A stretch of DNA of 64,000 bases. It comes from Candidatus Heimdallarchaeum aukensis (GTDB taxonomy: Archaea > Asgardarchaeota > Heimdallarchaeia > Heimdallarchaeales > Heimdallarchaeaceae). Location: positions 512,001 to 576,000 of the forward strand of contig CP084166.1 of NCBI GenBank assembly GCA_021513695.1, written 5' to 3'. The notes below the pieces were generated by a model that saw only the letters and a list, made by a program, of their open reading frames with translations, searched no databases and had not been told where the DNA came from. Shown here piece after piece: positions 34,260 through 58,981 of this stretch. Made by a program: the position numbers and the translations under genes. Within the stretch, counting starts at the first letter, position 1, and each line of letters starts with the position of its first letter.

Positions 34260-35960
34260 ATGAAAAAAAAAGCGAAAATACTTTTTTTACTAATTGTTTT
34301 CTCAAACTTAGTTTTTGTTTTGGTAACAAATACAAAAAACATTAATGCATTAAAAGAGCCTATTACTAGTGATTCTAATGAATTTCGAGCGTATAGTTTT
34401 GCTGTTCCTTACATGTACACTGATGTTACGATAAAGAAAGATGGCTCGATAGATATTTCTTATACCATTAACTTTACAAATTTTATTTTTGGAAATACTA
34501 TTGACATTATAGATATTGGTTTTCCTAATAAACATTACAATCTTAAAAGTGTTCAAGCTTGGATAGATGGTTATGAGATTACTGATATAAGGGAGAGTGA
34601 ATACATTAGTATAGGAGTAGAGATACATTTAGGTAGTCATTCTATTTTACCTGGTGAGAGCGCTGTATTGGTAGTTAAAGGGAATAATCCTAAAATGGTT
34701 TTTAAAGACGATACCAAAAAAAATTTTGCTAGTTGTGTTTTCAGGCAAACTTGGTTTAGTTCACAATTTGCTTTTGGAGAAACTGAAAGAAGAGTGAGAT
34801 TTTATTTTCCTGAAGATTTAACTGATATGAATGAAGTAGAAAAAAGAGTTTCGGACACTAGTGTAAATTTCACTAGGGAAGCAGATTACGTCGAGTTTAG
34901 CAAAACCAGTACTCCCTATGATAATGATTTTTATGTGGGTGTAGGAATACCTTCTAACTATGTTGATAAAATGTATAGGGAGTTTTGGGTTTATAGATTT
35001 GATGAACTTGTTGCTCAAGCATTGTTTTTCCTTTTCTTCTTTGGATTCTTTGGGATATTTTTCTATGTTTTTTGTATTTATCCCCTAAAAGAAAGAAAAA
35101 GATATCTCCCTCCAACTATAAAGTCGACAGGAGGAGCTGTAAGAATGGGTTTGAAACCTTCCGAAGCAGCTATTATCTTAGAAAAACCTCTTACTCTTGT
35201 AGCTTCTTTAGTTATTTACGAAATGATGTCAGAAGGATTGATTACTGTTAAACAAAAAGAACCCTTAAGATTTAAAGTTGAGATATCTACTAAAGAGAAA
35301 TCCAAATTACCTACTTACCAGAAGCATATTATTAATGGAATTAAGAAAAGAGAAAAATCAGACTTAAAATGGGAAAAGGGAAGTGTTTCTGGTGCTCGAC
35401 CACACGATCCTTTTGACCAAGATTACATAAGAAAAGCGCTTTTATCCTTAATTAGAGAAACAACTATGAAAATGAAAGGGTATAACCTGAAGAAAACAAA
35501 GAAGTACTATAATGAATTAATAGAAAGAGCTTGGCAAGACATGAAAAAAGAAAGACCAGAACTAGAAAATGCTTTCCTATGGATAATGATAGATGAAGAT
35601 TATGACGACAGAATGAAAGATCATTATCATGACTATTATTACCCTTCATGGTATGTTTATCATTATCATACCCATTATTATGGTAGAAATAGAGGAAGAG
35701 GAAGAGATAGGATAACTGGTAGAGAATTAAGAAAATCTGGTTTTAGAAGAACAAAGATAACAGATAGGGGACAGATAATCCCTGGAACAGATTTCAAGCG
35801 AATACAAAAAAATATTGTTAGAAGCCCAAGAAAATTACTTTCGTCAGTAAAATCAAAGACCAGACCTGTTTCTAGCAGCTCGGGAAGAAGTGGAGGGGGA
35901 GGAGGAGGTTGTGCTTGTGCTTGTGCTTGCGCTTGCGCTTGTGCCGGAGGAGGACGATAA
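34260..35960 (+). CDS. DUF2207-like membrane protein with C-terminal GGGGGG-(Cys-Ala)6-GGGR tail
   Basis: AGGAG SD. Signal peptide MKKKAKILFLLIVFSNLVFVLV, ectodomain with YTDVTIKKDGSIDISYTINF, one TM (ALFFLFFFGFFGIFFYVFCIY), PP..GLKPSEAAIILEKP..LVIYEMMSEGLITV. His/Tyr block HYHDYYYPSWYVYHYHTHYY and RG-rich block. Tail SSSSGRSGGGGGGCACACACACACAGGGR. Confidence 0.75.
   Translation: MKKKAKILFLLIVFSNLVFVLVTNTKNINALKEPITSDSNEFRAYSFAVPYMYTDVTIKKDGSIDISYTINFTNFIFGNTIDIIDIGFPNKHYNLKSVQAWIDGYEITDIRESEYISIGVEIHLGSHSILPGESAVLVVKGNNPKMVFKDDTKKNFASCVFRQTWFSSQFAFGETERRVRFYFPEDLTDMNEVEKRVSDTSVNFTREADYVEFSKTSTPYDNDFYVGVGIPSNYVDKMYREFWVYRFDELVAQALFFLFFFGFFGIFFYVFCIYPLKERKRYLPPTIKSTGGAVRMGLKPSEAAIILEKPLTLVASLVIYEMMSEGLITVKQKEPLRFKVEISTKEKSKLPTYQKHIINGIKKREKSDLKWEKGSVSGARPHDPFDQDYIRKALLSLIRETTMKMKGYNLKKTKKYYNELIERAWQDMKKERPELENAFLWIMIDEDYDDRMKDHYHDYYYPSWYVYHYHTHYYGRNRGRGRDRITGRELRKSGFRRTKITDRGQIIPGTDFKRIQKNIVRSPRKLLSSVKSKTRPVSSSSGRSGGGGGGCACACACACACAGGGR
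35910..35945 (+). repeat. hexanucleotide coding repeat (TGY GCN)x6 encoding (Cys-Ala)6
   Basis: TGTGCT TGTGCT TGTGCT TGCGCT TGCGCT TGTGCC, in frame with 34260-35960. Confidence 0.95.
35946..35954 (+). promoter_or_regulatory. Shine-Dalgarno-like GGAGGAGGA for the radical SAM gene, embedded in the terminal Gly codons of the upstream gene
   Basis: GGA GGA GGA CGA TAA A ATG: 7 nt separate the purine run from the ATG at 35962. Confidence 0.5.
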
Positions 35961-35961
35961 A

Positions 35962-37284
35962 ATGCCAAAAGAAGAAAAAGAAGAACAGAAAAAGATGTTT
36001 CACCTAAGAAACGAAGAAACCTTTACTAGAATGCATTTAAGGAAAGAAAAGAAAGGACAAGGAATACTAATAGTTAACGCCAACAGAATCTTTCACCTAA
36101 ATAAAACAGCAACTCAATTCGTTGAATACATAATAGAAGGAAAAAAAGATGAAGAAATAATAAGAAAAATGGTTAACAAATACAATGTTCACGAATCACA
36201 AATAAGAACAGATCTAATGAATCTGAAGATCGCAATAGAAGATATAGTAAATAAACCAGATATTGACCCGGTACAAGAACTGTTTGACGAAGATATGGAA
36301 ATGGAGAGAATGATTTTTTCAGCTCCATTGAGAATGGACTTGGCTATAACTTACAAATGCAATAACAAATGTGTCAAATGCTACGTTGAAGAAAAAAGAG
36401 AAATAAAAGAATTAACAACAGAAGAATGGAAAAAAGTCTTAGATAAACTGTGGGATATAGGTATTCCCCACGTAACATTTACTGGAGGAGAACCCACAAC
36501 AAGAAAAGATTTAGTGAAACTAGTAGAATACGCAGAAGATATAGGCATAGTAACGGGACTAATAACCAACGGAAGAAACCTGAAAGACAAAAAGTTAGTA
36601 GAAGAACTAGTAGCAGCAGGAATAGATCATTTCCAAATAACAATAGAAAGCCATATACCAGAAGTACATGATAAATTAACAGGAGTAAAAGGATCGTGGG
36701 AAGAAACAGTAGAAGGAATAAAAAACGTTGTACCTACACCAGTGTTTATTATGACAAACACAACTCTAGTTCCAGAAAACATAAAAGAAATAGATAAAAC
36801 AATAGAATTTTTAGCTAAGTTGGGAATAGACCACTTCGCAGCAAACGGAATAATAAAAGCTGGAGGAGGAAAAGATGACTCACTAGACTTAACAGTAGAA
36901 GAACTAAACAAAACACTAGATACAATAATGAAGAAAGCTGAAGAAATGAAAATGAGATTTCTATGGTACTCACCAACAAGATATTGTGAATTTAACCCAG
37001 TAAAGAAAGGACTAGGAGTAAAACAATGTACAGCAGGAAATATAGCAATGGCAATAGAACCAGATGGACAAGTAATACCATGCCAAAGCTACTTTGAACC
37101 ACTAGGAAACATATTAACTACTCCATGGAAAAAAATATGGAACCATAAAACAACAAAAAGAATAAGAAAAAGAAAATACTTGCCCCAAGAATGCAAAGGC
37201 TGCCCAGAAAAAGAAATATGCGGAGGAGGATGCCCTCTAAATTATCAAGCGCCAATAACTGTTTGCAGAGACGCTCTTTCGTAA
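35962..37284 (+). CDS. radical SAM / SPASM-domain peptide-modifying enzyme with N-terminal PqqD-like (RRE) domain
   Basis: PqqD-like ILIVNANRIFHLNKTATQFVEYIIEGKKDEEIIRKMVNKYNV...DLMNLKIAIEDI; CNNKCVKC (Cx3Cx2C); FTGGEP. SPASM pattern C-x12-G-x4-C (CTAGNIAMAIEPDGQVIPC), CKGCPEKEICGGGC (Cx2Cx5Cx3C) and a final Cys. Start moved from the ORF-track 35890 to the SD-preceded ATG at 35962. Confidence 0.9.
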   Translation: MPKEEKEEQKKMFHLRNEETFTRMHLRKEKKGQGILIVNANRIFHLNKTATQFVEYIIEGKKDEEIIRKMVNKYNVHESQIRTDLMNLKIAIEDIVNKPDIDPVQELFDEDMEMERMIFSAPLRMDLAITYKCNNKCVKCYVEEKREIKELTTEEWKKVLDKLWDIGIPHVTFTGGEPTTRKDLVKLVEYAEDIGIVTGLITNGRNLKDKKLVEELVAAGIDHFQITIESHIPEVHDKLTGVKGSWEETVEGIKNVVPTPVFIMTNTTLVPENIKEIDKTIEFLAKLGIDHFAANGIIKAGGGKDDSLDLTVEELNKTLDTIMKKAEEMKMRFLWYSPTRYCEFNPVKKGLGVKQCTAGNIAMAIEPDGQVIPCQSYFEPLGNILTTPWKKIWNHKTTKRIRKRKYLPQECKGCPEKEICGGGCPLNYQAPITVCRDALS

Positions 37285-37346: not shown

Positions 37347-37639
37347 TTACATCTTTTTTCCTTTTCCTGTTTTTTCCCATTCACTAAACTTATCTATTAG
37401 TTCGTCAATAGCATGTGTTATCTCTTCAGTGATTTTTTCAACAATAATTAATTTGTCATCTTCAATTCGAATAGACAAAATAGAACCGAGTTCAACCAAC
37501 CATAATTCAAGTTCATTAAGATCTTCAAAACCTAATTTTTCCTGTAAAGTAATTAAAGGTATTTTAGAATTATTAGATAGGACTTTGAATAATTTTTAGC
37601 TCTTTCTATTTCAATATCGCGAGAATCAAAATAGTTCAT
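37347..37639 (-). pseudogene. orphan duplicated 3' fragment of the 40618-43875 gene
   Basis: About 290 bp, near-identical by eye to 40618-40910. It translates to [15 protein letters not shown], loses frame, and ends ...KFSEWEKTGKGKKM*. Its ATG overlaps the TGA of 37636-40335 (ATGA). Confidence 0.8.
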
Positions 37640-40335
37640 TTTTTCTTCCCCTTTCCTTTACGTTCCCACTCACTGAACTGTTTGAGTAAATCATCAATAG
37701 CTGTAGTCATATCTTCAGAAACAAATTCGCCCTCAAATTGTAAGTCAAAGATTACTTCGTCTCTTTCGATTCTATTCGGTACATCCTTTGAATAGATGTA
37801 TAACCATAATTTCATAATCTCTATATCTTCAAAATCTAATAATGGAGAAAGCTTATTTAGACTTATTTTGTCGTAAACTAAACTAATTTTCTTAAGACGG
37901 TCAAGTATTTTATTATTAGTTTTTTTATCATTAATTATTTTTGTTAATTCAGACAATGTTCTATTATCTTCATCCAGTATATCTTTAACTATCGTTACTT
38001 TCTTTGTTGCAAAATCAAAAACTTCTGACCAATTATGTGCAAAAGATGGAAATAGTTTCTTAATTGTAGAAAAAGTATCACCTTTAAAAGAGATTATATA
38101 ATTTAAGAATGATAGCAATTTTTTATAACTAGCTATTATAGGCTTAAACTCTTGATCAGACCACTTTTCAATGAGTTTAGTTAACATTTCTTTTTTGAAA
38201 CTTTGTAAATTTGTAAAATTAATAAGATCAACTAAATAATTTATTTTACTGAGAACGGTATTATTTACGAAATAATCTAATTGATCATATGTTTTGTTTA
38301 ATTGTTCTCTTTCTATTTTTCTTAATTTTCTCTTATTTGAGCTGATAAAAAGGTAATCTTTAAGAAATAGTTTCAATTTTTCAAGATATTTTATAATCTC
38401 CTCAATTGAACTAATAAATAATAGTAAGGAAGAAGTGTTTATGAAAATCTTATCAAATTCTTCATTTAATTTAGTTTGCATATTTATTATCCCTGAGAAA
38501 TTTTCTCTTATCCTTAACCTTATTTTGTGTTCATAAACAAAAAAAAGAGGTAGGATAACAGATATAAGAAGTATAAGAGAAAAACATATTTTTTCAATTG
38601 GTTTAAGATAAATACTCTTTTTTAAAGGATTTTTACCATTTTCTATTTCCCAACCATCGAACAAACCGTCATCATCAGTATCAGAATCTAAAGGGTCAGT
38701 TCCAGCTAGATACTCTTCCAAATTAGTTAAACCATCTCCGTCCAGATCTTCTGATGAATCATATAACAAAGGGTTTAATGAATTACATAGTTCCCATCCA
38801 TCAGGTATGCCATCATCATCAGTATCGGGATCATTAGGGTCAGTTCCAGCTTGATATTCTTCTAAATTAGTTAAACTGTCTTTATCTTTGTCAACATAAG
38901 TGTCATTACTCAAAGGATTCAATAAAAATTCTACTTCCCAACTATCAGGTATGCCATCATCATCAGTATCAGAATCTAAAGGGTCAGTAGAATGCAAGGT
39001 CACTTCTTGAAAATCAGATAAGCCATCATCGTCAGTGTCTGAATCTAAAGGGTCAGTACTGTAAATAGTCACTTCTTGAAAATCAGAAAAGCCATCATCG
39101 TCAGTGTCTGAATCTAAAGGGTCAGTACTGTAAATAGTCACTTCATCTCCATCGTTCAAGCTATCATCGTCAGTGTCTGAATCTAAAGGGTCAGTACTGT
39201 AAATAGTCACTTCATCTCCATCGTTCAAGCTATCATCGTCAGTGTCAGAATCCAAAGGGTCAGTAGAATTCTGATACTCTTCTAAATTAGTTAATCCATC
39301 GCTATCTGGGTCTTCTGCAGAATCATCGATAGTAGTGTTTAAACCATTATTTTCTTCCCATTTGTCAAGCATATTATCTTGGTCTAAGTCTACATGCATG
39401 GGATAAGGATCAAAATTGTTAGCTGAACCATCTATAGGATATGGTCCTGTTCCACTCCAGTCATACCAATAGTTACCTGTTGTACCAGAATAAAATTTAT
39501 TGTATGTCCCATAATCACATGCTTGAGAAGAACCACCTAGATTATTTTTTATTAAGAAGTTTTTTACAAATATTTCATTTTTAGAGCTCTCATTTAGATA
39601 TATACCATAAGAATAACTATTTATTATAATATTGGAAGTAAAAGTATTTTTGTTAGAAACATCAAAGAGAATACCATAATTACTACTATTTACAACAGTA
39701 TTTGAAATAAAAGAATTGTTAGAACTACAAGAAAAAAATATGCCATCATAATAACTATTTGTTATAGTATTGGAAGTAAAAGTATTATTAAAACTAGAAT
39801 GAAGAGACATACCATAATTACTACATATCACAGAGTTGAAGGTAAAAGTATTATTGTTACTACAATAGAGGAAAATACCTACATTATAGCTATTTATAGT
39901 ATTATTAAATACAGTTATTGTTCCATCTGCAACAGAATAAATATAAATACCATAAAATGAACTTGAACCGCCCCCTTCAAGATAACAATCTCGAATAAGA
40001 ATATACTTTGTTGTCCCAGATATCTTTATACCATGAGATGTAGAGTCAGTTATACTATAGTTTTCAATGACATAAGGGTTATCTTTTGTCCCAGAACCAG
40101 GAAAAACAGTAAGATCATCATCAGACTCAATAAGAATAGGCGAATGAACTGTATAAACTTTTTTTACAGCTCTAGTTTCATTTGAATTTACACTAGACAT
40201 TGAATCTATTGTTATTTGATTAGATTGTAGAACCATATTTTCCTCTATTTGAGTCGAAAGGTAAACAAAGAAAACTGTAGTTGTTATTAATATTAGTACT
40301 AAACTTAATTGTATATAAGTTGCTATTCTTTTCAT
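37636..40335 (-). CDS. giant type-I membrane protein A: beta-helix (PbH1/NosD-like) + TSP3-type Ca-binding repeats + TM + cytoplasmic coiled coil + conserved C-terminal module
   Basis: Signal/anchor [26 protein letters not shown]. PbH1-like units ([19 protein letters not shown]...), [17 protein letters not shown], repeated [34 protein letters not shown], then about 330 aa Lys/Glu-rich helical sequence ending [21 protein letters not shown]. Confidence 0.8.
38948..39268 (-). repeat. tandem 69-bp (23-aa) coding repeats, TSP3-like
   Basis: Units [23 protein letters not shown] x2 are almost identical at the DNA level. They are followed by [46 protein letters not shown] and a partial fifth unit. 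Confidence 0.9.
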
Positions 40336-40617
40336 TTTTCAACCCTAGATACTCTAACTCTAAAGTAAATGCTTATTGAACATTTTCAAGATTTTAAATT
40401 TGAGTCACTTAATATTAAACAAAATACTAATTAACTTTTTCTACTAAACTTTGATTAATGTATAATCTGCACACATTAGGATGAAAGAAACTAAACTGTT
40501 TTTAGAGAAAAAATTCAAAATAAATGAACCACATTCAGTTATAACTAAAAAAATTCAGTGATTTTAATTAATATGTATGCTTCACAAAAACAACATGAGA
40601 TTTTCAACATTCTTTTT

Positions 40618-43600
40618 TCATTCTTTTTTACCTTTTCCTGTTTTTTCCCATTCACTAAATTTATCTATTAGTTCGTCAATAGCATGTGTTATCTCTTCAG
40701 TGATTTTTTCAACAATAATTAATTTGTCATCTTCAATTCGAATAGACAAAAAAGAGCCAAGCTCAACCAACCATAATTCAAGTTCATTAAGATCTTCAAA
40801 ACCTAATTTTTCTTGTAAAGTGAATAAAGGTATTTCAGAAGTAGTGGATAAAACCTTGAAGAATTCTTTAGCTCTTTCTATTTCAACATCTCGAGAATCA
40901 AAATAGTTTATTTTTTCTTCTATTTTTTCTTTTAATTCATTGTATTGTTCTATTCCATTGCTGGATAGCTCTCCTACTGTCTCTGTGTTCATAACCCTAC
41001 TATAATTTTCTTTCCAGTTAGCTAATTTTTCGTCAAACTCTTTAAAATATAACTCACTTTCTGTTATTTTTCCTTTTAGAGAATACACAAACAGATTATC
41101 TATTTCTTTTCTTAGCTCTTCTCCTTTTTTATCTAACAATATTAAAGGATAAAGATAAATAAGATCTCGAACTTCTTGTCTCTTATTTTCTATTTCTTGT
41201 AATTCCTCTAACAAGTCTTTTCTTTCTTCATTGGTTATTTGTTTAGAAAGAATTTCAAGTTTAGATTGAAAAAAATCACGAAAACCATCTGTTATCTCTA
41301 ATAACTTTTTTACTTTCTCGTAGTTAATATTAATGTTTAAGTCTTGTTGATTAATTATTTCTTTCTCTATTTCTAAAAATTCATCAAAGGTTTGTTTTTT
41401 GTGTATCTTAATTTGATTAATGTACGCATTTAATTCTTCTTTTGAAATTTGCTCATCAATATTTTTGATTTCATAGATCTTGGAAGAAAGCAAAGCATTT
41501 CGTATATCTATTTTTTCTATCTCTTTGGCATAGATTAAGTACTCATTACTTAATTCTTTGAATTCAAAAAAGACTTTAGCTATCCTTTTATTATAGTTAT
41601 CAAGATCAATTTTTTTATAATCGTTCTTTTGCACATAGCTATTGATCTGTTGCAAATCAGAGAGCAGTTGTTGCTTCTTTTCTAATATTTTATTCAACAA
41701 TAAGATATATTCATCTGTAATTTTTCTTTCTAATTCAGTCTTAATTTGTGATAACTTTTCTATAAAATCATTAATCTCCCTTTTCACTTTTTCAAATTCA
41801 ATAATATTTTTCTTTCCAATTATAACCTTAAATAAATTAAACTTTGAGCGATAAGAACCAATAATATTATCTAATTGTTTAGCACTATTAACCCATTCTT
41901 TAAAATTATCAGGTGAATATGATTGAAGAAGATATTCATCTATTTTTTCCTTAAATTTATTAAATTCCAAAAATTGTTTATTATATTCGTTCTTCAGTTG
42001 GATGATTTTTTCTCTCTGTTTTTTCTTAATTAATAAAATAGTTGTTGTTACGCTTCCTATTACCAAAAAACTCAATAGACAGGAAAGCACAATTTTAATT
42101 TTTTTTGCTCGAGGATTGCTTAATTTATTTAATGGATCACTTCCATAAATGATTATTTCATCATAATCATTAAATTTGTCATCATCTGTGTCATTTTTTG
42201 TTGGATCTGTGTGGTAAGCATATATTTCTTCATAATCAGATAAACCATCTCCATCAGTGTCAGAATCTATGGGATCAGTTAAGAAAACTATAACTTCTTG
42301 ATAATCAGTTAAACCGTCGCTATCTGAGTCTTTCTTATAAGGAAAAGAATGAAATATTTTAACTTCTTCATAATCACTTAATTTATCATCATCAAAATCC
42401 CCATCTCTTATACATCCTCCAAAAATAACTTCATCATAATCATTAAGACCATCACCATCAGTGTCATTGAAATTAGGATTAGCCATCCACTGATATTCTT
42501 CTAAATTTGATAAGCCATCTCCATCAGAATCGGCCTTGGAGTCATCTAAATTATAGACAATTTCCCAAGCATCTTCCATTCCATCAGAATCAGAATCATT
42601 CTCGACAGATGCAACTCGCCTAGGAAAGATATCTCCAATTTTATTTCCATAAATAGAATAAAAATTGGTAGTACCATCCCAATCTTCCCATAAATTGCCA
42701 ACTAGTAAAGTAGGAGAATACCAGTAAGTGTTAGTGCCATAATCTTCATTATTATCTTGAATCTTCAAAAAAGAATTATTGAAGACTATGTTATAATCTC
42801 CTCTTTCACCAATCCTTACTCCCCCTAAACCTGTTCCACAAAAAAGGTTATTATAAATCAAACTGTTACTTACTTCGAAACCATAACTAATAGCAAAATT
42901 AGTTGAATTATAGATATTGTTATTACTAATAACAACGTTATTACATCTTTCTAAATATAATCCATCTGATGTTGCTCCATTTATCAAATTATCAGAGATT
43001 ACAATTTCACTATTACCACTTGACCATAGGCATGAAGCCCAATCATTAGTTGTTTTTTCTAAATTATTGTAAAAGATTTTTATTTTTTTATTATCTCTAA
43101 CTCCAATGCTTCCTGCTCCATTAGTTATACATGTGTTTTTTATAATTGTAACATTTGAAGATTCAGAAACTAAAATACCAAAACCAGAGTTATTGGCAGA
43201 ATAATTATTTTTTATCAAGCTATCTCCAGATTGATGTACCAACACGCCATATTGATTATAAAGAAGAGTACAATTCTCAACTATTACACCACCTGCTCTA
43301 GTTTCAGAAGAAATCCCAACTTCATAACCTTGAATAAAACAATTCCTAATTATTACGAAAGAACTAACATAACGAATAACAATACCACAAGAATTTTCTA
43401 AATACTCAGTATCACCAGTTGAAACTTCATAGTTCTCAATTATATAAGGGTCTGCTTCAGTTCCTGAACCAGGAAACCCAAACTTTACAAAGTCTTCTTC
43501 ACTATTGATTTCTATCGGTGAATGAACAATATAACGTGTTTCTTTAGCATTGTTTCTTTCGGCAATTGCTTTTTGACAAGAACTACCATGGTTTATTTGT

Positions 43601-43875
43601 CTGTAGCTTGAAGTTAAATTATGCTTATCAATTGAGCGATAATTATCATATTCTTTTCCATTCTCTGTTTTATTGTTATTAAATTTAGAAGCCTTTTCAT
43701 CTACATAATTATCTATTAGGTGAAAAGTTGGAGTAAGAAAAAGAAAAATAACTAAAGAAACAATAATTCTTTTATAGTTTGGAAATATATTGTTTAATAT
43801 TTTCATTTCTAGAACAAGTATATACATTACAATAAAAAAATAAAAGTTTTTCTTCACTATTTCTTTTCTTTTCAT
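40618..43875 (-). CDS. giant type-I membrane protein B (same architecture as A, longer coiled coil)
   Basis: N-terminal anchor, beta-helix units (NNSGFGILVSESSNVTIIKNTCITN...), TSP3-like DSDGDGLSNLEE / DTDGDGLNDYDE / DSDTDGDGLSDYEE, TM IVLSCLLSFLVIGSVTTTILLI, and about 480 aa coiled coil ending AIDELIDKFSEWEKTGKGKKE. Confidence 0.8.
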   Translation of the reverse strand: MKRKEIVKKNFYFFIVMYILVLEMKILNNIFPNYKRIIVSLVIFLFLTPTFHLIDNYVDEKASKFNNNKTENGKEYDNYRSIDKHNLTSSYRQINHGSSCQKAIAERNNAKETRYIVHSPIEINSEEDFVKFGFPGSGTEADPYIIENYEVSTGDTEYLENSCGIVIRYVSSFVIIRNCFIQGYEVGISSETRAGGVIVENCTLLYNQYGVLVHQSGDSLIKNNYSANNSGFGILVSESSNVTIIKNTCITNGAGSIGVRDNKKIKIFYNNLEKTTNDWASCLWSSGNSEIVISDNLINGATSDGLYLERCNNVVISNNNIYNSTNFAISYGFEVSNSLIYNNLFCGTGLGGVRIGERGDYNIVFNNSFLKIQDNNEDYGTNTYWYSPTLLVGNLWEDWDGTTNFYSIYGNKIGDIFPRRVASVENDSDSDGMEDAWEIVYNLDDSKADSDGDGLSNLEEYQWMANPNFNDTDGDGLNDYDEVIFGGCIRDGDFDDDKLSDYEEVKIFHSFPYKKDSDSDGLTDYQEVIVFLTDPIDSDTDGDGLSDYEEIYAYHTDPTKNDTDDDKFNDYDEIIIYGSDPLNKLSNPRAKKIKIVLSCLLSFLVIGSVTTTILLIKKKQREKIIQLKNEYNKQFLEFNKFKEKIDEYLLQSYSPDNFKEWVNSAKQLDNIIGSYRSKFNLFKVIIGKKNIIEFEKVKREINDFIEKLSQIKTELERKITDEYILLLNKILEKKQQLLSDLQQINSYVQKNDYKKIDLDNYNKRIAKVFFEFKELSNEYLIYAKEIEKIDIRNALLSSKIYEIKNIDEQISKEELNAYINQIKIHKKQTFDEFLEIEKEIINQQDLNININYEKVKKLLEITDGFRDFFQSKLEILSKQITNEERKDLLEELQEIENKRQEVRDLIYLYPLILLDKKGEELRKEIDNLFVYSLKGKITESELYFKEFDEKLANWKENYSRVMNTETVGELSSNGIEQYNELKEKIEEKINYFDSRDVEIERAKEFFKVLSTTSEIPLFTLQEKLGFEDLNELELWLVELGSFLSIRIEDDKLIIVEKITEEITHAIDELIDKFSEWEKTGKGKKE

Positions 43876-44044
43876 TATTTCATTTTAAAGTAGTTTATTT
43901 ATCAAGTTCAACTTGCATAAAAGAATACAAATAAAACTAATACGAAAAATCGATGAAAAACATAAGATTCACAGAATGGATAAAATAAGACAGAAAAAAA
44001 ATATAATATTTCATATTTTTTTCTAAAAACTAAAATTAGTGAAA

Positions 44045-46010
44045 TTACTTCTTTTTCCCCTTTCCTGTACGCTCCCACTCACTAAACTGTTTAAGCAGAT
44101 CATCTATAGCTTCAGTCATATCTTCTGCCACGAACTCACCCTCAAGTTGTATATCGAACATTACTTCTTCTCCTTCTATCTGATTTGGTAAATCTTTAGA
44201 ATAAGCATATAACCATAGTTTCAAGACCTCTTTGTCTTCAAAGTCTAACAAAGGAGAAAGCTTGGTTAAACTTATTTTATTATAAACAGAACTAACTTTC
44301 TTAAGTCTTTCAAGTCTCATATTATTATTCTCACTATCATTAAATATTTTAGCTAACTCACCTAATAATTGTTCATTTTGTTCTAATAGTTCTTGGACAA
44401 TAACCAATTTTTCAGTAGCTAAATCTTTAATATCAGACCAGAAAGAGTCAGAAGAAGCAAATTTAGTAAAAGCTTTATGATCAATAAAAGCTACAATGTA
44501 ATTTAGGGTTGATAATATCTCTTCATAGCTGATAATTAGAGGTTTGAACTCCTTATCAGACCAATTATAGACAATGTTAGTTAACATTTCTTTAGTGTAA
44601 TCAAACAAATTTTTATAATCAATAAATTCAATTAATGAAACTACTTTATCATGAAGAGAGGAGCTGATAAAAGAGGTTATTTTTTCAAAAATCTTGTTAA
44701 ATTGTTCTTGTTTATTAGTTTTTAATCTTTTGCTGTTAGAATGAACAAAAATTAACTTTTCAAGAAGATTACCTAACTTTTCAAAATAGTCTTTTATCTC
44801 CTCTGCAGAAGAAACGAAAGAAATTAATGAAGAAATTTCTGTAAAAGTTTCCTTATACTTTCCATCTAATTCAGATTGTAAATGAATTACTTTTTCAAAT
44901 TTTTCCTTTACTTTTATTCGCATTATTAATACATGAATGGAGAATGTTACAAGAATAACAAATATAGGAAGTATAGCAAAATAACCTATTTTTTCTACTT
45001 GAGACAAATAAATATTCTTTTTTACAGGATTTTTTCCATTTTCTACTTCCCAACCGTCAAGCATACCATCTCCATCAGTGTCATTGTCCAAGGGGTCAGT
45101 AGAATAGATATGAACTTCTTGACCATCAGTCAGTCCATCTCCGTCACTGTCACTGTCCAAGGGGTCGGTATTGTAAGTATTTATCTCTTCATAGTCATCA
45201 AGTCCATCGTCGTCTGTGTCATTATCTATGGGGTTAGTACCTATTTGATACTCTTCTAAATTGGTCAAACCATCATTATCAAAATCCTCTGTAGAGTCAT
45301 CAATATTTGTGTCCAAGCCATTATCTTCTTCCCATTTGACGGGTATATTATCCTGGTCTAGATCCACATACATAGGATAAGGATCAAAGTTATTAGCGGA
45401 ACCATCTATTGGATATACTCCTGTTCCATTCCAGTCATACCAATAGTTCCCTGTTGACCCAGAATAAAACTTATTGTTTGTTCCCTCATCATACGCTTGT
45501 GAAGAACCACCTAAATTATTTTTAATTATGATGTTTTCCATAAAACTATTATTAGAGTATAACGGAGTCTTATACCATAAGAATTACTATTAGCTATAGT
45601 TTTAGAGCTAAAAATATTGTAAGAACTATTAAGAATATATACACCAATATAGCTACTGTTTGCTATGGTGTTAGAGGTAAAAATGTTATAAAAACTATAG
45701 CCTAGTTATATATTGTAGATACCACCATTTGTTATAATATTATTTATAAAAATATTATTAGAACTAGAACCGAGACTAATACAACACCAATCATTATTTA
45801 TAATTGTATTAAAAATAAAGTTGTTATTAGAACTATAACCTATTCGTATACCGTAATAACTAACAGTAATATTATTGAAAAAGAATGTGTTATTAGAGCT
45901 ATATTGAAGATTTATACCACTGGTAATTATATTTGTTATTTTATTAGAAATAAATGTATTATTAAAACTAGTTTCAATCCAAATACCATAATTCTTATTA
46001 TTTCTTTAGT
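44045..46010 (-). pseudogene. paralog C of the giant membrane protein family, 5' (beta-helix) part decayed
   Basis: ORF 44045-45541 starts inside the conserved [25 protein letters not shown] segment. DNA from 45542 to about 46010 still resembles the PbH1-repeat region of A (39600-39900) but contains stops and frameshifts, and no signal peptide remains. Confidence 0.75.
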
Positions 46011-47054
46011 ACCAACAATAAGTTGACCGATTTCTATAGGTTAAAATTATAGAAGTCCATACTATCATTGTCGTGTTTCCAACACAAAGTTTTTACGATA
46101 ATTCGGAAGTACTATATTTCTTATAAAAAAATATAAAGTTGCAAAAAAACAAATTTACAAATTTTCCAACTACAACCATTATTCAATGTTAATGTTTTGA
46201 ATTCAATAATTATTCTCCTCTGTTGCCTTTTTTGGTTTATTGCAATCTTCTTTGTTGTTCTTTATTTCCTCTTCAAAGGTTGTTTAATAATTTGTTTAGA
46301 GTTAATCTAATTTCTGAACGAGTTTTATTATCAGGAATAAGAAAAGAGACTTTTACTCCATTACTTTTATTATAAAACATATCTGCTACTTCACGTAAAT
46401 TATTCTTAATTTCAATTAATTCCTCAGGAATTGGACTACTTTTAGGCAATTGTTCTACTTTTGCTTGATAAATGTCAAATAATACCGAATACAATATTTC
46501 GGTAGTAAAATAATATTTTTCATAATGAGAGTTTTTCCAATCCTCTTCTTTTAGATTTTTTTCTTTTATATGTTTGATTCCTTTATATTTTTTCCCACTC
46601 GCTAGCTCTTCAAGATAATAATGAGATTTTGCATGTTTTAAATACTTACCCTTGATAGGTGATTCTTTTTTAAATTCAGTAACATCAAGATGAAACGAGT
46701 ACGTAACTTTTTTCTCTGTATCATACTTTATAGGCCTTTCTAATAAAGAATAAAATATTACAAAAATTAATTTCGCTAATAATTTTGTATCACAGTCATT
46801 CTCATTTATTTCCTGTTCTATTCGCTCAAAAACTCCAAATCTTTCTAGTAGATAGATTTTATCTTCATTATTGAACAAAAATGTAACTAATTCTAAAATT
46901 ATATACTCTTTGTCATCACTATCAGAAGAAAAAGTGAAAAGATCTTTAAACTCATCAAAAACCTTTAGACGAAAGAGATAATCAAGATCACTGTTCTTAG
47001 CTGCGTATTTAACTGTTTCAAAGTAAAACATATTTATTATCACAAAACCAACAA

Positions 47055-48065
47055 TGTTCACTCAATAGACCTGGGTTACACTTTTGGGTACTAGAGAAAC
47101 ATAGGGGTGATTCATAAATTTTTCTCCAGGAGTAAGGAGGTTAAGAGACTGGTGAGGACGGCTAAAATTGTAGTATGAGCGGTAGAAGGAGAGGTCGGAG
47201 TTACAGTAGGTTAGTCCTAGTCTTTTCATCTCACGGATAATGGTTCCATGTAGTCTTTCTACTTTTCCACATGTTTCGGGGTGAAAAACTCTAGATCTTA
47301 TGTGCTTTATTCCCTCTGTTTGACACCAACGGGAGAAGGTACTTGTTCCCCCTCTAACGGAGTAGAATAGTGCTCCATTGTCTGTGAGAATAGACTCGGG
47401 GTATCCATATTTTTCTACTGCTTCTTCTAACAGACTTATTATCTGCTCTTTTTTCGGTGCGAAAGGGTGGAGTTTAGCTCCCAGGCAGAATCGTGAGTGG
47501 TCGTCTATTAGAGTTATGAGATAAAGGTGTTGTCCTTGTTCTTCTACCCAGAAAGGTCCTTTCACATCTATCTGCCAGAGTTCGTTAGGGGATGAGCGCT
47601 CAAAACTCTTGTATTGAGTAATGTTTCTCTTTTTTCTATTACTCCACAGAGGAAGACCTAACTCCCCTATTACTTTAACTACTGTGTTTCGCGATAGTGC
47701 TCTTCCTTCTTTCTTCAACAGATAAACTATCTTCTCCACGTTCATTCCTTGCTTTACTCTTAACTCCCTTATCCTCTCTCTTAACTCCTCATTCACTTTC
47801 CTGTGTATAGTTTTAGGTCTAGATGATCTATCCTTCCACCATTCTCCTTCAGGGTTCTCCTTAAACCTTTTCAACCACTTATATACAAACTTCCTACTCA
47901 CCATATACCTGTGAGCTACCTCTTTTATCTTCTCTCCTTCCAAAGCTTTTTTAACCACAATCTTTCTTAGTCTCTCTAGGTTACGTTTGGGTTTGTTCAT
48001 AATTCGTCACTTACCCTCGTAACCCACTTTCTATTTATTTGTTACCAACGTGGGTAGAGTAAACA
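47055..48065 (-). mobile_element. IS481/IS3-like (rve integrase-type) insertion sequence
   Basis: 1011 bp between the 16-bp direct repeats. Imperfect terminal repeats TGTTCACTC.../TGTTTACTC... One ORF. Visibly more G+C-rich than host DNA. Confidence 0.8.
47062..48000 (-). CDS. DDE transposase, rve (integrase core) type
   Basis: 312 aa with an N-terminal HTH (KEVAHRYMVSRKFVYKWLKRF). LWQIDVKGPF (D), ESILTDNGALF (D), CGKVERLHGTI (E), YNFSRPHQSL. Confidence 0.85.
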   Translation of the reverse strand: MNKPKRNLERLRKIVVKKALEGEKIKEVAHRYMVSRKFVYKWLKRFKENPEGEWWKDRSSRPKTIHRKVNEELRERIRELRVKQGMNVEKIVYLLKKEGRALSRNTVVKVIGELGLPLWSNRKKRNITQYKSFERSSPNELWQIDVKGPFWVEEQGQHLYLITLIDDHSRFCLGAKLHPFAPKKEQIISLLEEAVEKYGYPESILTDNGALFYSVRGGTSTFSRWCQTEGIKHIRSRVFHPETCGKVERLHGTIIREMKRLGLTYCNSDLSFYRSYYNFSRPHQSLNLLTPGEKFMNHPYVSLVPKSVTQVY

Positions 48066-48875
48066 ATCACAAAACCAACAAAGAAAGAAATAATAAATAT
48101 TAAAAAAATTGTTTCACCATCTGCAAAATTGGTGATAAAAGCATAACTGATACAAAATATCAAACTAAGAATATTTATTCCAATTTTGTAGTCATCTCCT
48201 AAAATCTGTAAATCTAAAGGTTTGTTTGCTACTTCCAAGTCTGAAACCTTGAAAAAACTTTGTAACAAAATAATGAAATATAACACATATACACCATTAT
48301 AAAACCAAGCAAACTTTGTTATTTTACTGGAACTTGCTCCTATTACAGCAGTAATATATTTTGGATCAAGAAATGATAAGAAAAAAGGAATTGCTATAAA
48401 AAATAACGAAAGGGGAAAATAATAGATTAAGATTAAAGCTCTATTATAAAGCGATATTTTTGATTTAACAATGCTATACGAAAGAAGATAGTTTTTTATT
48501 TTCTTTAGATATTCTCCGTCAATATTATTTTCTCTTTGCTCTCTTGTTTCAATATCCTTCTTAATCTCATTAATAGTTTTTTTAGTTGATACCAAGTATT
48601 TTACAATTCTTATTAAGAAAACAATTAAAAGTAAGGTCACAACCAAATTGATAATAAAAAATGTAGTAATTAAAAATGTAGAAAAACTCTTTTGAGACGC
48701 GAAAATGGAATACTTTATGCTGAAGAAAGAATTGACTAAAAAAGCAGTAAAAAGAATAACTACGATATTAGTGACTATATATGGTTTTATCTTTAAATAG
48801 TACCTTTCTAACAAGGTACTATACATAAATAATTTTCTCGCTTAATTATTTTTAAACTTTTAGTGATTAAAAATC

Positions 48876-50694: not shown

Positions 50695-51700
50695 AAGCAT
50701 GTCCAAAAATTCTTTTTCACCAACTATACAGTCCGAAGGAGTAAAAGGTAGTTGTAACAGAGGAGAGAACTATAAAGAGTAGAAAGAATGGTGGAGGGTA
50801 AGTGATCAAGGATTGGGGGAAGAGAGAGTTTGAGGAGACCAAAGACGTGTTCAATACTACTACGATACTCGGGGTGATGATTATGGCGATAGAGACCAGG
50901 GTAGAGACGATGAGCTTGAACTATTGATCCGAGAGGAGGAGAGGGATAACGAGCATTACTTTTTGGGGGAATAACAGGGAAAAAGGAATGTTGTCTAAGA
51001 AGACCGACGATATTTTCTGTCCAGTTGGCACAGTCTCCATAAAATCTCAAGAGCGGTCTCAAGAGTGCAGAAGGAAGTTTCTGCCATAGTAAACCGAAGA
51101 CTTTACTATCGTGAGTGTTACTAGCAGAATGAGCTAAAGAGATTATAGCTCTGGAGGGTAAACCAACTATAAGGTGTATCTTCCAGAAAAGTTTAGTTTG
51201 GAGGTTTTCTTTAGTCCTCCTCTTGCCCACTTGAGAAAACGCCAAACAGAAGCTTGACGGATTTTAAACCCTGAACTATCCACCGCCATAGCTTTCAACC
51301 CTTTTTTTTTCACTATTTCCCCACCTAAGTTTATTATCCACCGCTCTAAAATTTTACTTTCTGTCGCTCTCCACACTGCATGAAAAGTAGATTTGGAAGG
51401 AATCTTCTTCATCCACCCCTCTTCTATCAAAAAATCGCATAGAGACAACTTTTCCTCTAACTTCCTCCAAGCAATTCCTTCTATTCTAGCAATGATCGCT
51501 AAAGCCAGTATCACCCACCTTTCTGCTATTCTTTTTCTCCCTCTCTTACTTTCTCTCGGTTCCTCTTTCACCAGTTTCTTAAGGAAAGGTTCATTAATGA
51601 TTATGAATTCTCTTGCTTTGTGGAGGTCTATGATCTGAAAGAAACTCATACTTCCGACATAAACCCCCACATTAATAAAAATTAATTTTTGGACATGCTT
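50695..51700 (-). mobile_element. IS5-family-like insertion sequence, copy 2
   Basis: Perfect 17-bp terminal inverted repeats AAGCATGTCCAAAAATT (50695-50711) and AATTTTTGGACATGCTT (51684-51700). I found no flanking direct repeat. Confidence 0.85.
50724..51670 (-). CDS. IS5-type DDE transposase in two overlapping frames (orfA 51167-51670, orfB 50724-51245; a -1 shift is needed)
   Basis: orfA ends ...AVDSSGFKIRQASVWRFLKWARGGLKKTSKLNFSGRYTL*. orfB carries KIHLIVGLPSRA...NTHDS...YGDCANW...IEHVFGLLK to the natural end. It has fewer lesions than copy 1. Confidence 0.7.
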
Positions 51701-56562: not shown

Positions 56563-57276
56563 ATGTTTCATGACTTTCAAGTTCAAGATGGTATTAACCT
56601 TTACAATTCCAATGGTTTTATTATAAAAAATAATACCATTTCCTATGGCGGGTATGGACTATTTGTATCTGAATCTTCACACGGGGTATATACTAATAAT
56701 ACTTGTATAGAAAATAGCAAATATGGTGTTTATATAAAATATGGATACAACATTTCTATCAATGAAAACAACTGCAGCGCTAATGATCAAGGTATAAATC
56801 TTTACAACTCTTCTACAATTTATATCCACAATAATAGCATAAGTAAAAACACTATTGGACTGACTTTTGATCTCTCTAATCATTCAATCATCACTTTTAA
56901 TTCATTTGAGAAGAATGAACAATATGCAATAATTATGGATTCTTCATCTTCTTCTAATCTCATCCATCATAATACGTTTATTGACAACAACTTGCAAGGA
57001 ACATCTCAAGCTTGTGATAATGGTCATAATAATACTTGGTATGACCAATCAACAAAAACTGGTAATTATTGGTCTGATAGAAAAGGGATAGGAAAATATT
57101 ACATAGATGGTAATAGTAAATCGTATGATAAATACCCCCTAAAAAATCTCCCTCAACAATGTGCTGAAAAAACTTCTATTGATTTTCTCATCATTCTGAT
57201 CTCTTTTCTCTCTACAGTTATTTTGTCTTATGTCATAAGAAACAAGTATGCATTCAGACAATTACGATTTAGATAG
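56563..57276 (+). CDS. beta-helix (PbH1) protein fragment with C-terminal TM, N-terminally truncated relative of the giant family
   Basis: PbH1 units (NNTISYGGYGLFVSESSHGVYTNNTCIEN...), NNLQGTSQACDNGHNNTWYDQSTKTGNYWSD..GKYYIDG as in A and C, and TM FLIILISFLSTVILSYVI. No signal peptide; the frame opens only at 56551. Confidence 0.5.
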   Translation: MFHDFQVQDGINLYNSNGFIIKNNTISYGGYGLFVSESSHGVYTNNTCIENSKYGVYIKYGYNISINENNCSANDQGINLYNSSTIYIHNNSISKNTIGLTFDLSNHSIITFNSFEKNEQYAIIMDSSSSSNLIHHNTFIDNNLQGTSQACDNGHNNTWYDQSTKTGNYWSDRKGIGKYYIDGNSKSYDKYPLKNLPQQCAEKTSIDFLIILISFLSTVILSYVIRNKYAFRQLRFR

Positions 57277-57916: not shown

Positions 57917-58981
57917 TTAATTATCATAGAATCGTAAATAGAAATAACTGCTAGGATCACCATCTTCAAGTACAGGAACAGAAGTGTAGGCATCAACATA
58001 ATCTTTTATTGTGTCAAAAACATTTTCTAAGTCAAGGTCAAAATTTATCCATTCACAACTGGAGCTATCCCAGTATTGTTTTATAAAATAACCTGTAAGA
58101 GCTCCATGGTAGTTGCTTCCATCCGGCATATAATTAAAGAATTTAGCTTGAGTAGTTTCATTGTATCTACACGCTGCAATCATAAGTACATTCTCTGAGG
58201 CTTGAATAGACATTATTTCATTCATTCCTCCAGAAAAGCATGAATCAATAAAAACAAGTAATTTTGATTCATAAGTCGTAGTTGAATCAGAACAAGCAAA
58301 TTTATCAAAAAGTATCTTTAAATTATAGTCATAAAGAAATTCATCTATTCCATAAGCTTGAACACTATGCTCTTCTTCATTATAACTATATCCATGCCCC
58401 GAGTAAATAAAGAATATTAAGTCATTTGGATCAGAATTTTCAACAACATTAGCTGTAACATCGTAAATATTTTGTAGTGTTGCTTGATGATAATCAAAGT
58501 TAAAGATACCACCTCCAGGACCTGATGTGTCAGGTAAATCAAAAAGACTTTCTCGATTTACAGATTCTTCGTGGCCAAGTAGGTGAACATTCATAGAAAA
58601 AGAAACAATATCATAAGTTTCTGGTTGTTGATCAAATAATTCAAAAAGAGCTGAAGCCCACATACACCATAAAATTGCATCTTCCCACGCACCAGCACAA
58701 TATTGTCCAGTTTGATCTTGACCAATACCGATAATAATAAACTCTGCCTTAATTTTATTGTCAGTGCCACTAGGATAGTCTATTACTGGAATAGTTGGTC
58801 CATTAACTCCTCCCCCATCACCGGTACCAGGATCAAGTTCAAAACCTTTTGTCAATAAGACTTCTTGAAAGAGTGTATTATTTATACTAGAACATAGTAA
58901 TGTCGATAAAATAAATAACGTAATAAAAATATTTTTATTAATTTTATTCACAGACCTATTAAAAAAATAACAACATCCCAT
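57917..58981 (-). CDS. extracytoplasmic caspase-like (clan CD) cysteine peptidase
   Basis: N-terminal anchor IFITLFILSTLLCSS. His/Cys dyad contexts LIFFIYSGHGYS and LLVFIDSCFSGGM. Confidence 0.65.
   Translation of the reverse strand: MGCCYFFNRSVNKINKNIFITLFILSTLLCSSINNTLFQEVLLTKGFELDPGTGDGGGVNGPTIPVIDYPSGTDNKIKAEFIIIGIGQDQTGQYCAGAWEDAILWCMWASALFELFDQQPETYDIVSFSMNVHLLGHEESVNRESLFDLPDTSGPGGGIFNFDYHQATLQNIYDVTANVVENSDPNDLIFFIYSGHGYSYNEEEHSVQAYGIDEFLYDYNLKILFDKFACSDSTTTYESKLLVFIDSCFSGGMNEIMSIQASENVLMIAACRYNETTQAKFFNYMPDGSNYHGALTGYFIKQYWDSSSCEWINFDLDLENVFDTIKDYVDAYTSVPVLEDGDPSSYFYLRFYDN

Follow-up and report, generated by a model that had tools for sequence, protein, structure and literature searches.

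The window analyzed here, a 64,000-nucleotide (nt) stretch of the Candidatus Heimdallarchaeum aukensis genome (contig CP084166.1, positions 512,001 to 576,000), contains three tandem minus-strand genes, A, B and C, of one surface protein family: a beta-helix and thrombospondin type 3 (TSP3) repeats are followed by a single transmembrane helix, an all-alpha region and a conserved C-terminal tail. Our analysis suggests that this tail is a PCI-like winged-helix module, and profile searches point to its being a promiscuous C-terminal unit that stands behind unrelated N-terminal parts in more than 150 Heimdallarchaeial protein clusters. By analogy with PCI subunits, we lean, with modest confidence, toward a role for the module as the cytoplasmic docking or oligomerization unit of this tandem, Heimdallarchaeum-specific family of single-pass surface proteins. 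Neither the family nor the module was described in the literature that we searched, where the only related remark concerned the PCI-like domains of other archaeal proteins.

Several lines of evidence agree on the PCI-like character of the tail, each of them individually weak. The tail of ~95 amino acids (aa) comprises a winged helix, an acidic amphipathic helix (I-D-x-L-L-x-x-F-x-x-W-E) and a G-x-G-K-K end. In the AlphaFold2 (AF2) model of A, the winged-helix elements (H203-219, E222-224, H225-231, H237-246, E253-256 and E259-262) are predicted in the alpha-beta-alpha-alpha-beta-beta topology of PCI, and the same order is predicted in B. Searches of Pfam with isolated tails gave weak PCI matches for five of eight, with Paf67 and CSN8_PSD8_EIF3K each matching three of the eight, while 13 of 101 full-length module carriers matched PF01399 at E≤1e-3 (best 1.4e-7). 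When a profile built from 55 tails was compared with all PDB sequences, the PCI domain of eIF3a ranked top (E 0.008), with eIF3L and a plant lid PCI subunit lower in the ranking. Structural comparison pointed in the same direction: about 30 of the top 32 Foldseek matches in the PDB were PCI subunits of the proteasome lid, COP9 signalosome (CSN) or eIF3, aligned over 225-430 columns, the greater part of the query. The 190-376 aa that precede the winged helix are all-alpha, and most of the alignments to Rpn, CSN and eIF3 proteins span 280-430 columns, at TM-scores of ~0.2. Since A, B and C themselves fall below the Pfam threshold, we call the module PCI-like rather than a confirmed member of the PCI family. 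Among nine paralogs the tail is the most conserved segment, with a median identity of 50% compared to 37% for the ectodomain and 26% for the helical linker. The initial annotation had correctly singled out a conserved tail of about 90 aa, but missed both the winged helix and its wide occurrence in Heimdallarchaeia.

Winged helices are a classic fold for nucleic-acid binding, and some of those in PCI proteins, such as eIF3 and PCID2/Thp1, touch RNA. The family could accordingly be imagined as membrane-tethered regulators: with DNA or RNA bound by the winged helix, in the intact protein or once proteolysis has set it free, surface sensing would be coupled to gene expression. The extreme C-terminus is indeed basic (GKGKKK, family net charge +1.8). 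However, the winged-helix core (net charge -3.4) and the next helix (-4.5) are acidic family-wide, and the putative recognition helix (L-E-x-W-L-x-x-L) is hydrophobic and acidic, being neither basic nor polar. No DNA-binding helix-turn-helix family was among the matches listed for the tails at E≤10. Judged from its negative net charge, the winged helix does not seem to be DNA-binding in character, and we consider a regulatory role highly improbable because of this acidity.

That A, B and C share one architecture, as first proposed in the initial annotation, is borne out by the agreement of open reading frames (ORFs), Pfam, BLASTP and hydropathy. Gene A (37636-40335, minus strand, as are all features of A, B and C) is intact and encodes 899 aa, in the order signal/anchor, beta-helix, TSP3 repeats, transmembrane helix, short helical domain and PCI-like tail (Pfam NosD 4e-17, Beta_helix 9e-17, TSP3_bac 2e-20). 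A protein identical to A is encoded on a Joint Genome Institute (JGI) metagenome contig, with the same neighbors. The N-terminal hydrophobic segment of A (aa 8-26, 40258-40314; Kyte-Doolittle peak 2.26) follows the residues MKR, has two Lys/Arg before it and none after, and is a signal peptide or signal anchor. It is followed by a NosD/PbH1 right-handed beta-helix recognized by Pfam (aa 99-295, 39451-40041), which includes a GNYWYDW cap motif and whose DNA has a 69-nt periodicity, equivalent to a 23-aa coil, at 39600-39852. Next come TSP3-type calcium-binding repeats of the form DxDxDGxxDxxE (aa ~316-572, 38620-39390; Pfam TSP3_bac, Binary_toxB calcium-binding domain and tandem repeat finder) and the transmembrane helix (aa 583-601, 38533-38589; hydropathy peak 2.73). 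The predicted cytoplasmic part consists of an all-alpha domain of the short class (aa 602-798, 37942-38532), delimited by AF2 helices and segment lengths, and the C-terminal module (aa 799-899, 37639-37941) with its PCI-like winged helix, acidic helix and GKGKKK end.

Gene B (40618-43875; ORF, Pfam, BLASTP) is also intact, with 1085 aa as the longest ORF, the same layout and a helical region of the long class. Its start is probably Met24 (43806), because the alignments of both orthologs from the sister species, Ca. H. endolithica (E1 and E7), begin at B residue 24. Like A, B has an N-terminal hydrophobic segment by hydropathy, and its transmembrane helix (aa 595-613, 42037-42093; hydropathy) is followed by a predicted cytoplasmic all-alpha region of 376 aa with long helices (aa 614-989, 40909-42036) and the PCI-like module (aa 990-1085, 40621-40908). 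The proteins are large, not "giant" as they had been called. Gene C (44045-45541; ORF, Pfam, BLASTP, hydropathy) is an N-terminally truncated ORF of 498 aa without a signal sequence; it retains the beta-helix cap, TSP3 repeats, a transmembrane helix (aa 188-206, 44924-44980; hydropathy), the short helical domain and the tail (44048-44350). The protein is the same, residue for residue, as an NCBI entry of Ca. Heimdallarchaeum aukensis from a 3.08-Mb contig. Hydropathy shows one internal transmembrane helix in each of the three proteins. TSP3_bac (PF18884) scores of 73.1, 70.1 and 71.4 bits for A, B and C, respectively, are all above the 25-bit cut-off. The NosD and Beta_helix families (PF05048 and PF13229) match above their gathering scores in A (62.7 and 61.6 bits) and B (65.6 and 55.9 bits); the C ORF lacks a Pfam match to either, its beta-helix remnants being found only out of frame. 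The three proteins are paralogs: A and B align at E 2e-59 by BLASTP, with the ectodomain 35% identical and the last 77 residues forming a match of their own at 42%, and A and C at E 2e-137 with 51-73% identity.

We also examined the region between membrane and tail, which the initial annotation had described as a Lys/Glu-rich helical region of 330-480 aa forming a long coiled coil. The region is helical, but its lengths of 197, 376 and 191 aa in A, B and C, respectively, correct the stated range, and a clear richness in Lys and Glu is confined to B (K 14%, E 14.6%, compared to K 13.8% and E 8.1% in A). Across the family the segment falls into two length classes, a short one of ~195 aa and a long one of 267-376 aa. 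A long and probably dimeric coiled-coil rod would suit mechanical coupling of the adhesin to a structure in the cytoplasm, for example a filament of the cytoskeleton, and some features of the region are in keeping with it: the segment is wholly alpha-helical, B is rich in Lys and Glu and is predicted by AF2 to have helices as long as 61 and 84 residues, and A and B each contain one segment of ~30-40 aa with a good heptad pattern. However, strong heptad residues were few and formed no long continuous register by a home-made heuristic score (38/298 in A, 28/472 in B and 0/292 in C), for which the controls gave 120/120 for tropomyosin, 32/33 for GCN4 and 0 for myoglobin. The AF2 monomer model of A residues 602-899 (predicted local distance difference test score, pLDDT, 82.6; predicted TM-score, pTM, 0.73) folds back into a compact helical bundle plus winged helix. 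It comprises eight helices of 9-40 residues split by loops, a beta-alpha-alpha-beta-beta unit and a final helix; the helices before the winged helix span 2-30, 36-65, 72-103, 106-122, 130-149, 152-160 and 162-201 in fragment numbering. In addition, the linker is the least conserved part of the protein and varies in length from 191 to 376 aa, whereas conservation resides in the winged-helix tail instead of the helices. The inner region is thus predicted not to be a long coiled coil, and in A is modeled as a compact helical bundle; a coiled-coil rod appears to us quite unlikely. The helical region of B gave fold matches to generic three-helix bundles only.

Hydropathy, the positive-inside rule and co-occurring domains support, at the level of prediction, a type I single-pass topology with the N-terminus outside and the C-terminal region in the cytoplasm, as the initial annotation had also concluded. 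In the 15-residue flanks of the last transmembrane helix before the module, Lys and Arg average 1.0 on the N-terminal side and 3.9 on the C-terminal side, and the C-terminal side has the excess in 57 of the 67 carriers with a transmembrane helix before the module. The module is also fused to 4Fe-4S proteins, to TPR plus zinc-ribbon proteins and to HEAT proteins without any transmembrane helix, and one carrier (P0111) has the order TSP3, transmembrane helix, module and RING-like finger. The ectodomain families are typical extracellular modules. Because the positive-inside rule holds family-wide and the module co-occurs with domains of cytoplasmic type, the inner region is probably cytoplasmic. 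The density of N-glycosylation sequons was tried as a further indicator of topology and rejected, as it did not separate outer from inner parts in this AT-rich genome.

When 1.84 billion protein cluster representatives were searched exhaustively with a profile (cut-off E≤1e-3), 158 were returned as carriers of the module. Wherever a source was named, which was the case for ~20 clusters, it was Heimdallarchaeota, Heimdallarchaeum, Gerdarchaeota or an unclassified "Asgard group". Partner domains among the carriers include TSP3 repeats (15), beta-helices (10) and leucine-rich repeats (8), as well as TPR and HEAT repeats, zinc ribbons (including double zinc ribbons) and multi-pass membrane domains on the N-terminal side. 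Judging by locus-tag prefixes (INQ03_ and GF308_), at least three different carriers are encoded by a single metagenome-assembled genome. Narrower searches recovered far fewer sequences: word-indexed homolog searches gave four proteins each with the inner regions of A and B and three with the 55-tail alignment, and a locus search with a narrow tail alignment gave two H. endolithica loci only. Within the window, a scan with the tail profile found the module in A, B, C and an orphan fragment only. Five carriers (P0037, P0039, P0075, P0079 and P0083) have two PCI-like modules each, adjacent or nearly so, and P0019, P0020, P0040, P0052 and others are stand-alone modules of 90-110 aa, which could be soluble partners.

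The position of the module within its carriers raises the possibility that the tail is a recognition tag, read by a cytoplasmic sorting, quality-control or modification system through the winged helix and the G-K-(K) end. Candidate readers would be a ubiquitin-like/ESCRT pathway or a dilysine-type retrieval system, either of which would control the localization or turnover of many membrane proteins. In 136 of 154 carriers the module ends no more than 12 aa from the free C-terminus, one Lys of the G-K end is kept in at least 90% of aligned tails, and RING-like fingers accompany the module in some carriers, where they follow it. A, B and C all end in K-x-K-x-x, a formal fit to the eukaryotic dilysine pattern; many other carriers end in G-K-I, G-K-V, G-K-I-E or similar, unlike a dilysine signal. 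Contacts between ESCRT-II and ESCRT-III and between CdvA and CdvB are made through winged-helix domains, and archaeal membrane kinases of ESCRT loci have been noted to bear a PCI-like domain (PMC10936438). However, no ESCRT, ubiquitin or coat gene was found near the cluster in the window. We regard a recognition tag as an unlikely explanation of the tail.

A more prosaic explanation is that these are ordinary, fast-evolving adhesins or glycan-binding proteins in which the cytoplasmic part just anchors or stabilizes the molecule, the likeness to PCI being convergent or too weak to have functional meaning. The ectodomain does consist of common prokaryotic surface modules (NosD beta-helix and TSP3), with sub-threshold TSP3 matches to Myxococcus CglD and MtsD, and each PCI signal is weak when considered individually. 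Pseudogenization and copy-number change, both evident in the cluster, are typical of contingency surface genes. Nevertheless, the 300-470 residues inside the membrane are more than a simple anchor needs, the better conservation of the tail compared to the ectodomain is unexpected of such an anchor, and the tail recurs behind unrelated domains in 158 clusters, some of them without a transmembrane helix. Scans of A, B and C against NCBIfam gave sub-threshold TSP3 and beta-helix matches only and no whole-protein family, and no curated S-layer or C-terminal sorting-signal model in Pfam or NCBIfam matched the three proteins, so that, by these models, they do not fall into an ordinary, known class of S-layer proteins. 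That the family is made up of plain adhesins is, in our view, quite improbable.

The docking or oligomerization role that we favor would operate as follows. A NosD/PbH1 beta-helix, probably glycan- or surface-binding, would be presented on a calcium-stiffened TSP3 stalk, and after the single transmembrane helix an all-alpha domain and then the PCI-like winged-helix module would lie inside the cell. At the inner face of the membrane the module would join the surface proteins to one another, to other carriers or to a common partner, using the winged-helix edges and the bundle of C-terminal helices in the manner by which PCI subunits assemble. "Outside-in coupling" to a cytoplasmic structure, suggested in the initial annotation, would be a plausible idea. 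Several observations weigh against this role or the PCI likeness behind it. Pfam PCI (PF01399, gathering score 22 bits) has no match in A or B and reaches only 13.4 bits (E 0.09) in C, and the Foldseek matches to PCI subunits have E-values of only 0.009-0.1 and TM-scores of ~0.2. The AF2 model of B is moderate (pLDDT 71.4, pTM 0.48), and the alignments used as AF2 input were shallow, at 8 sequences for A and 6 for B. The transmembrane flanks of A are not decisive, with five Lys/Arg on the N-terminal side and four on the C-terminal side. Furthermore, we know of no MPN-domain partner or PCI-type complex in archaea.

PCI scaffolds are regarded as a eukaryotic signature, organizing the proteasome lid, the COP9 signalosome and eIF3, and Heimdallarchaeia are the archaea placed closest to eukaryotes. 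A bolder version of the docking role is that a PCI-type assembly principle gathers dozens of carriers (surface receptors, multi-pass membrane proteins and soluble TPR, HEAT and zinc-finger proteins) into hetero-oligomeric platforms that line the Heimdallarchaeial membrane on its inner side, the module then being a prokaryotic relative, and possibly a forerunner, of the eukaryotic scaffold. We consider this version doubtful at present. The module bears on the origin of the PCI assembly principle and gives a testable handle on how Heimdallarchaeial surface proteins are organized on the inside, and the tail profile annotates the C-terminus of more than 150 clusters of "hypothetical" proteins.

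The cluster also provides a view of surface-protein birth and death in an Asgard genome, through duplication, microhomology-mediated fusion, insertion sequence (IS) activity and repeat expansion. An orphan, frameshifted copy of a B-type 3' end, containing the tail module, lies at 37353-37654 on the minus strand, as established by tblastn and DNA alignment. Compared with B residues 984-1084 it changes frame; it is 92.5% identical at the amino acid level over B 1005-1084 by tblastn, and its DNA is ~93% identical to the 3' end of B with a 1-nt deletion. The junction falls exactly at the A stop codon and has 11 nt of microhomology (GAAGAAAAAAT). Upstream of the ATG of C, a decayed beta-helix remnant extends over 45545-46010 on the minus strand (tblastn with A residues 153-247; three-frame translation), in which PbH1 coils remain readable but are broken by an in-frame stop and a frameshift, without a signal sequence. 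When A, B and C were run against the window by tblastn, the out-of-frame remnants were located at 45565-45993. A truncated relative on the plus strand (56563-57276; Pfam NosD 9e-24, 84.5 bits) retains a NosD beta-helix, the GNYW cap, a C-terminal transmembrane helix and a short basic end, and has neither a signal sequence by hydropathy nor a PCI-like tail by the tail-profile scan of the window. In the TSP3 region of A, a 69-nt tandem array of 4.7 copies matching at 90% (38944-39265) encodes near-identical 23-aa TSP3 units and indicates recent repeat expansion.

An IS element of ~1 kb with a helix-turn-helix plus rve transposase of 312 aa (47054-48074, minus strand; Pfam rve) is located near the decayed end of C, and a separate DDE transposase fragment lies at 50724-51245. 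At the corresponding locus of H. endolithica (CP084167.1, ~607-637 kb) we found seven full-length paralogs of 852-1155 aa, all with the same tail. Two copies of this IS element (87-88% identical over ~1020 nt by blastn, one truncated) lie among them, and next to the cluster (L002) are orthologs of two genes that flank the cluster in the window, the radical SAM gene and the one for a 566-aa membrane protein. Tandem birth-and-death evolution of the family is therefore well supported, because seven paralogs and IS copies occupy a syntenic locus in the sister species and A contains the repeat array. The orphan fragment, the decayed copy C, the array and the H. endolithica paralogs with their IS copies together show rapid turnover by tandem duplication, illegitimate recombination, repeat expansion and IS activity. 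The initial annotation had put forward such evolution, and the decay of the C ectodomain to about 46010, the orphan fragment and the truncated relative on which it drew all stood up to closer comparison. The DNA at 46006-46136 resembles, at 82% identity, the intergenic stretch that directly follows paralog E3 of H. endolithica (L002 8291-8427), a likeness that suggests that a further family gene was deleted upstream of C.

The neighboring genes contain several other features. The 566-aa membrane protein (34260-35960, plus strand) ends in SSSSGRSGGGGGGCACACACACACAGGGR, and its gene overlaps that of a radical SAM/SPASM enzyme with a PqqD-like N-terminal domain (35890-37284, plus strand). H. endolithica (L003 11906-14909) has retained both the gene pair and the Cys-Ala repeat end, and the pair looks like a maturase with a Cys-Ala-repeat substrate. 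A 920-aa protein (59043-61805, plus strand) has a signal/anchor, an FG-GAP (integrin-alpha-like) beta-propeller, TSP3 repeats and several C-terminal hydrophobic segments; it has the TSP3 stalk in common with the family and lacks the PCI-like tail. Between it and the truncated beta-helix relative lies a gene for a caspase-like Peptidase_C14/C13 protein of 354 aa (57917-58981, minus strand). A TPR protein (117-1541, plus strand) matches Pfam RPN7, a 26S proteasome subunit, at 33.7 bits (cut-off 29.6) and has no PCI-like tail by the tail profile; the match probably reflects TPR similarity only. A 263-aa protein (48035-48826, minus strand) has a sub-threshold Tetraspanin match (E 0.0047, 17 bits compared to a cut-off of 32), and the window gave no match to a tRNA or an Rfam family.

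Among known systems, the closest counterparts of the module are the PCI subunits of the proteasome lid, the COP9 signalosome and eIF3 (PF01399; CSN7, Rpn5, Rpn12 and eIF3a), which have the same order of helical domain, winged helix and C-terminal helix and are the best sequence-profile matches of the module in the PDB and Pfam. The presence of several different carriers per genome also resembles the multiple PCI subunits of one complex. However, the family proteins are anchored in the membrane and expose a large domain outside the cell, they are archaeal with named carriers confined to Heimdallarchaeia, the similarity of A, B and C to PCI is below the Pfam threshold, and their helical part is a predicted bundle of hairpins rather than a clear TPR-like solenoid. 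To our knowledge, the conserved I-D-x-L-L-x-x-F-x-x-W-E...G-K-K end has no PCI counterpart. Another membrane-bound winged-helix protein is DDRGK1/UFBP1, the adaptor of the UFM1 ligase at the endoplasmic reticulum membrane. Unlike the family, it is anchored by its N-terminus and lacks an extracellular domain, and its winged helix acts in a pair with UFL1, within a eukaryotic system. The Pfam scan of A, B and C reported no DDRGK-type family.

Archaeal membrane proteins with a comparable tail have been described. Euryarchaeal membrane Ser/Thr kinases of ESCRT loci, as well as Asgard Vps28-C proteins, are reported to carry a small C-terminal PCI-like winged-helix domain, for which oligomerization or winged-helix contacts have been proposed (Makarova et al. 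2024, PMC10936438). By that description, the kinases resemble the family in being archaeal membrane proteins with a cytoplasmic PCI-like winged helix. They differ in their taxa and in their N-terminal parts, which are a kinase and Ig repeats there and a beta-helix and TSP3 repeats here, and, unlike at the ESCRT loci of the kinases, no ESCRT or ubiquitin genes were found in the 64-kb window. On the outside, the family shares its ectodomain modules and presumed calcium dependence with prokaryotic surface proteins built from NosD/PbH1 beta-helices and TSP3 repeats, such as the Myxococcus adhesins CglD and MtsD, although matches to the NCBIfam models for CglD and MtsD are far below their cut-offs (49 compared to 400 bits) and CglD is, unlike the family, a lipoprotein according to NCBIfam. 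Neither of these two proteins is known to have, behind a transmembrane helix, a domain of 300-470 aa in the cytoplasm. Eukaryotic type I adhesion receptors such as integrins and cadherins have no homology to the family in any part and offer a functional analogy only, in that a calcium-binding adhesive ectodomain, a single transmembrane helix and a region that may recruit cytoplasmic partners follow one another in the same way. The domains themselves are already known; what appears to be new is their combination, together with a Heimdallarchaeia-wide PCI-like C-terminal module on membrane proteins.

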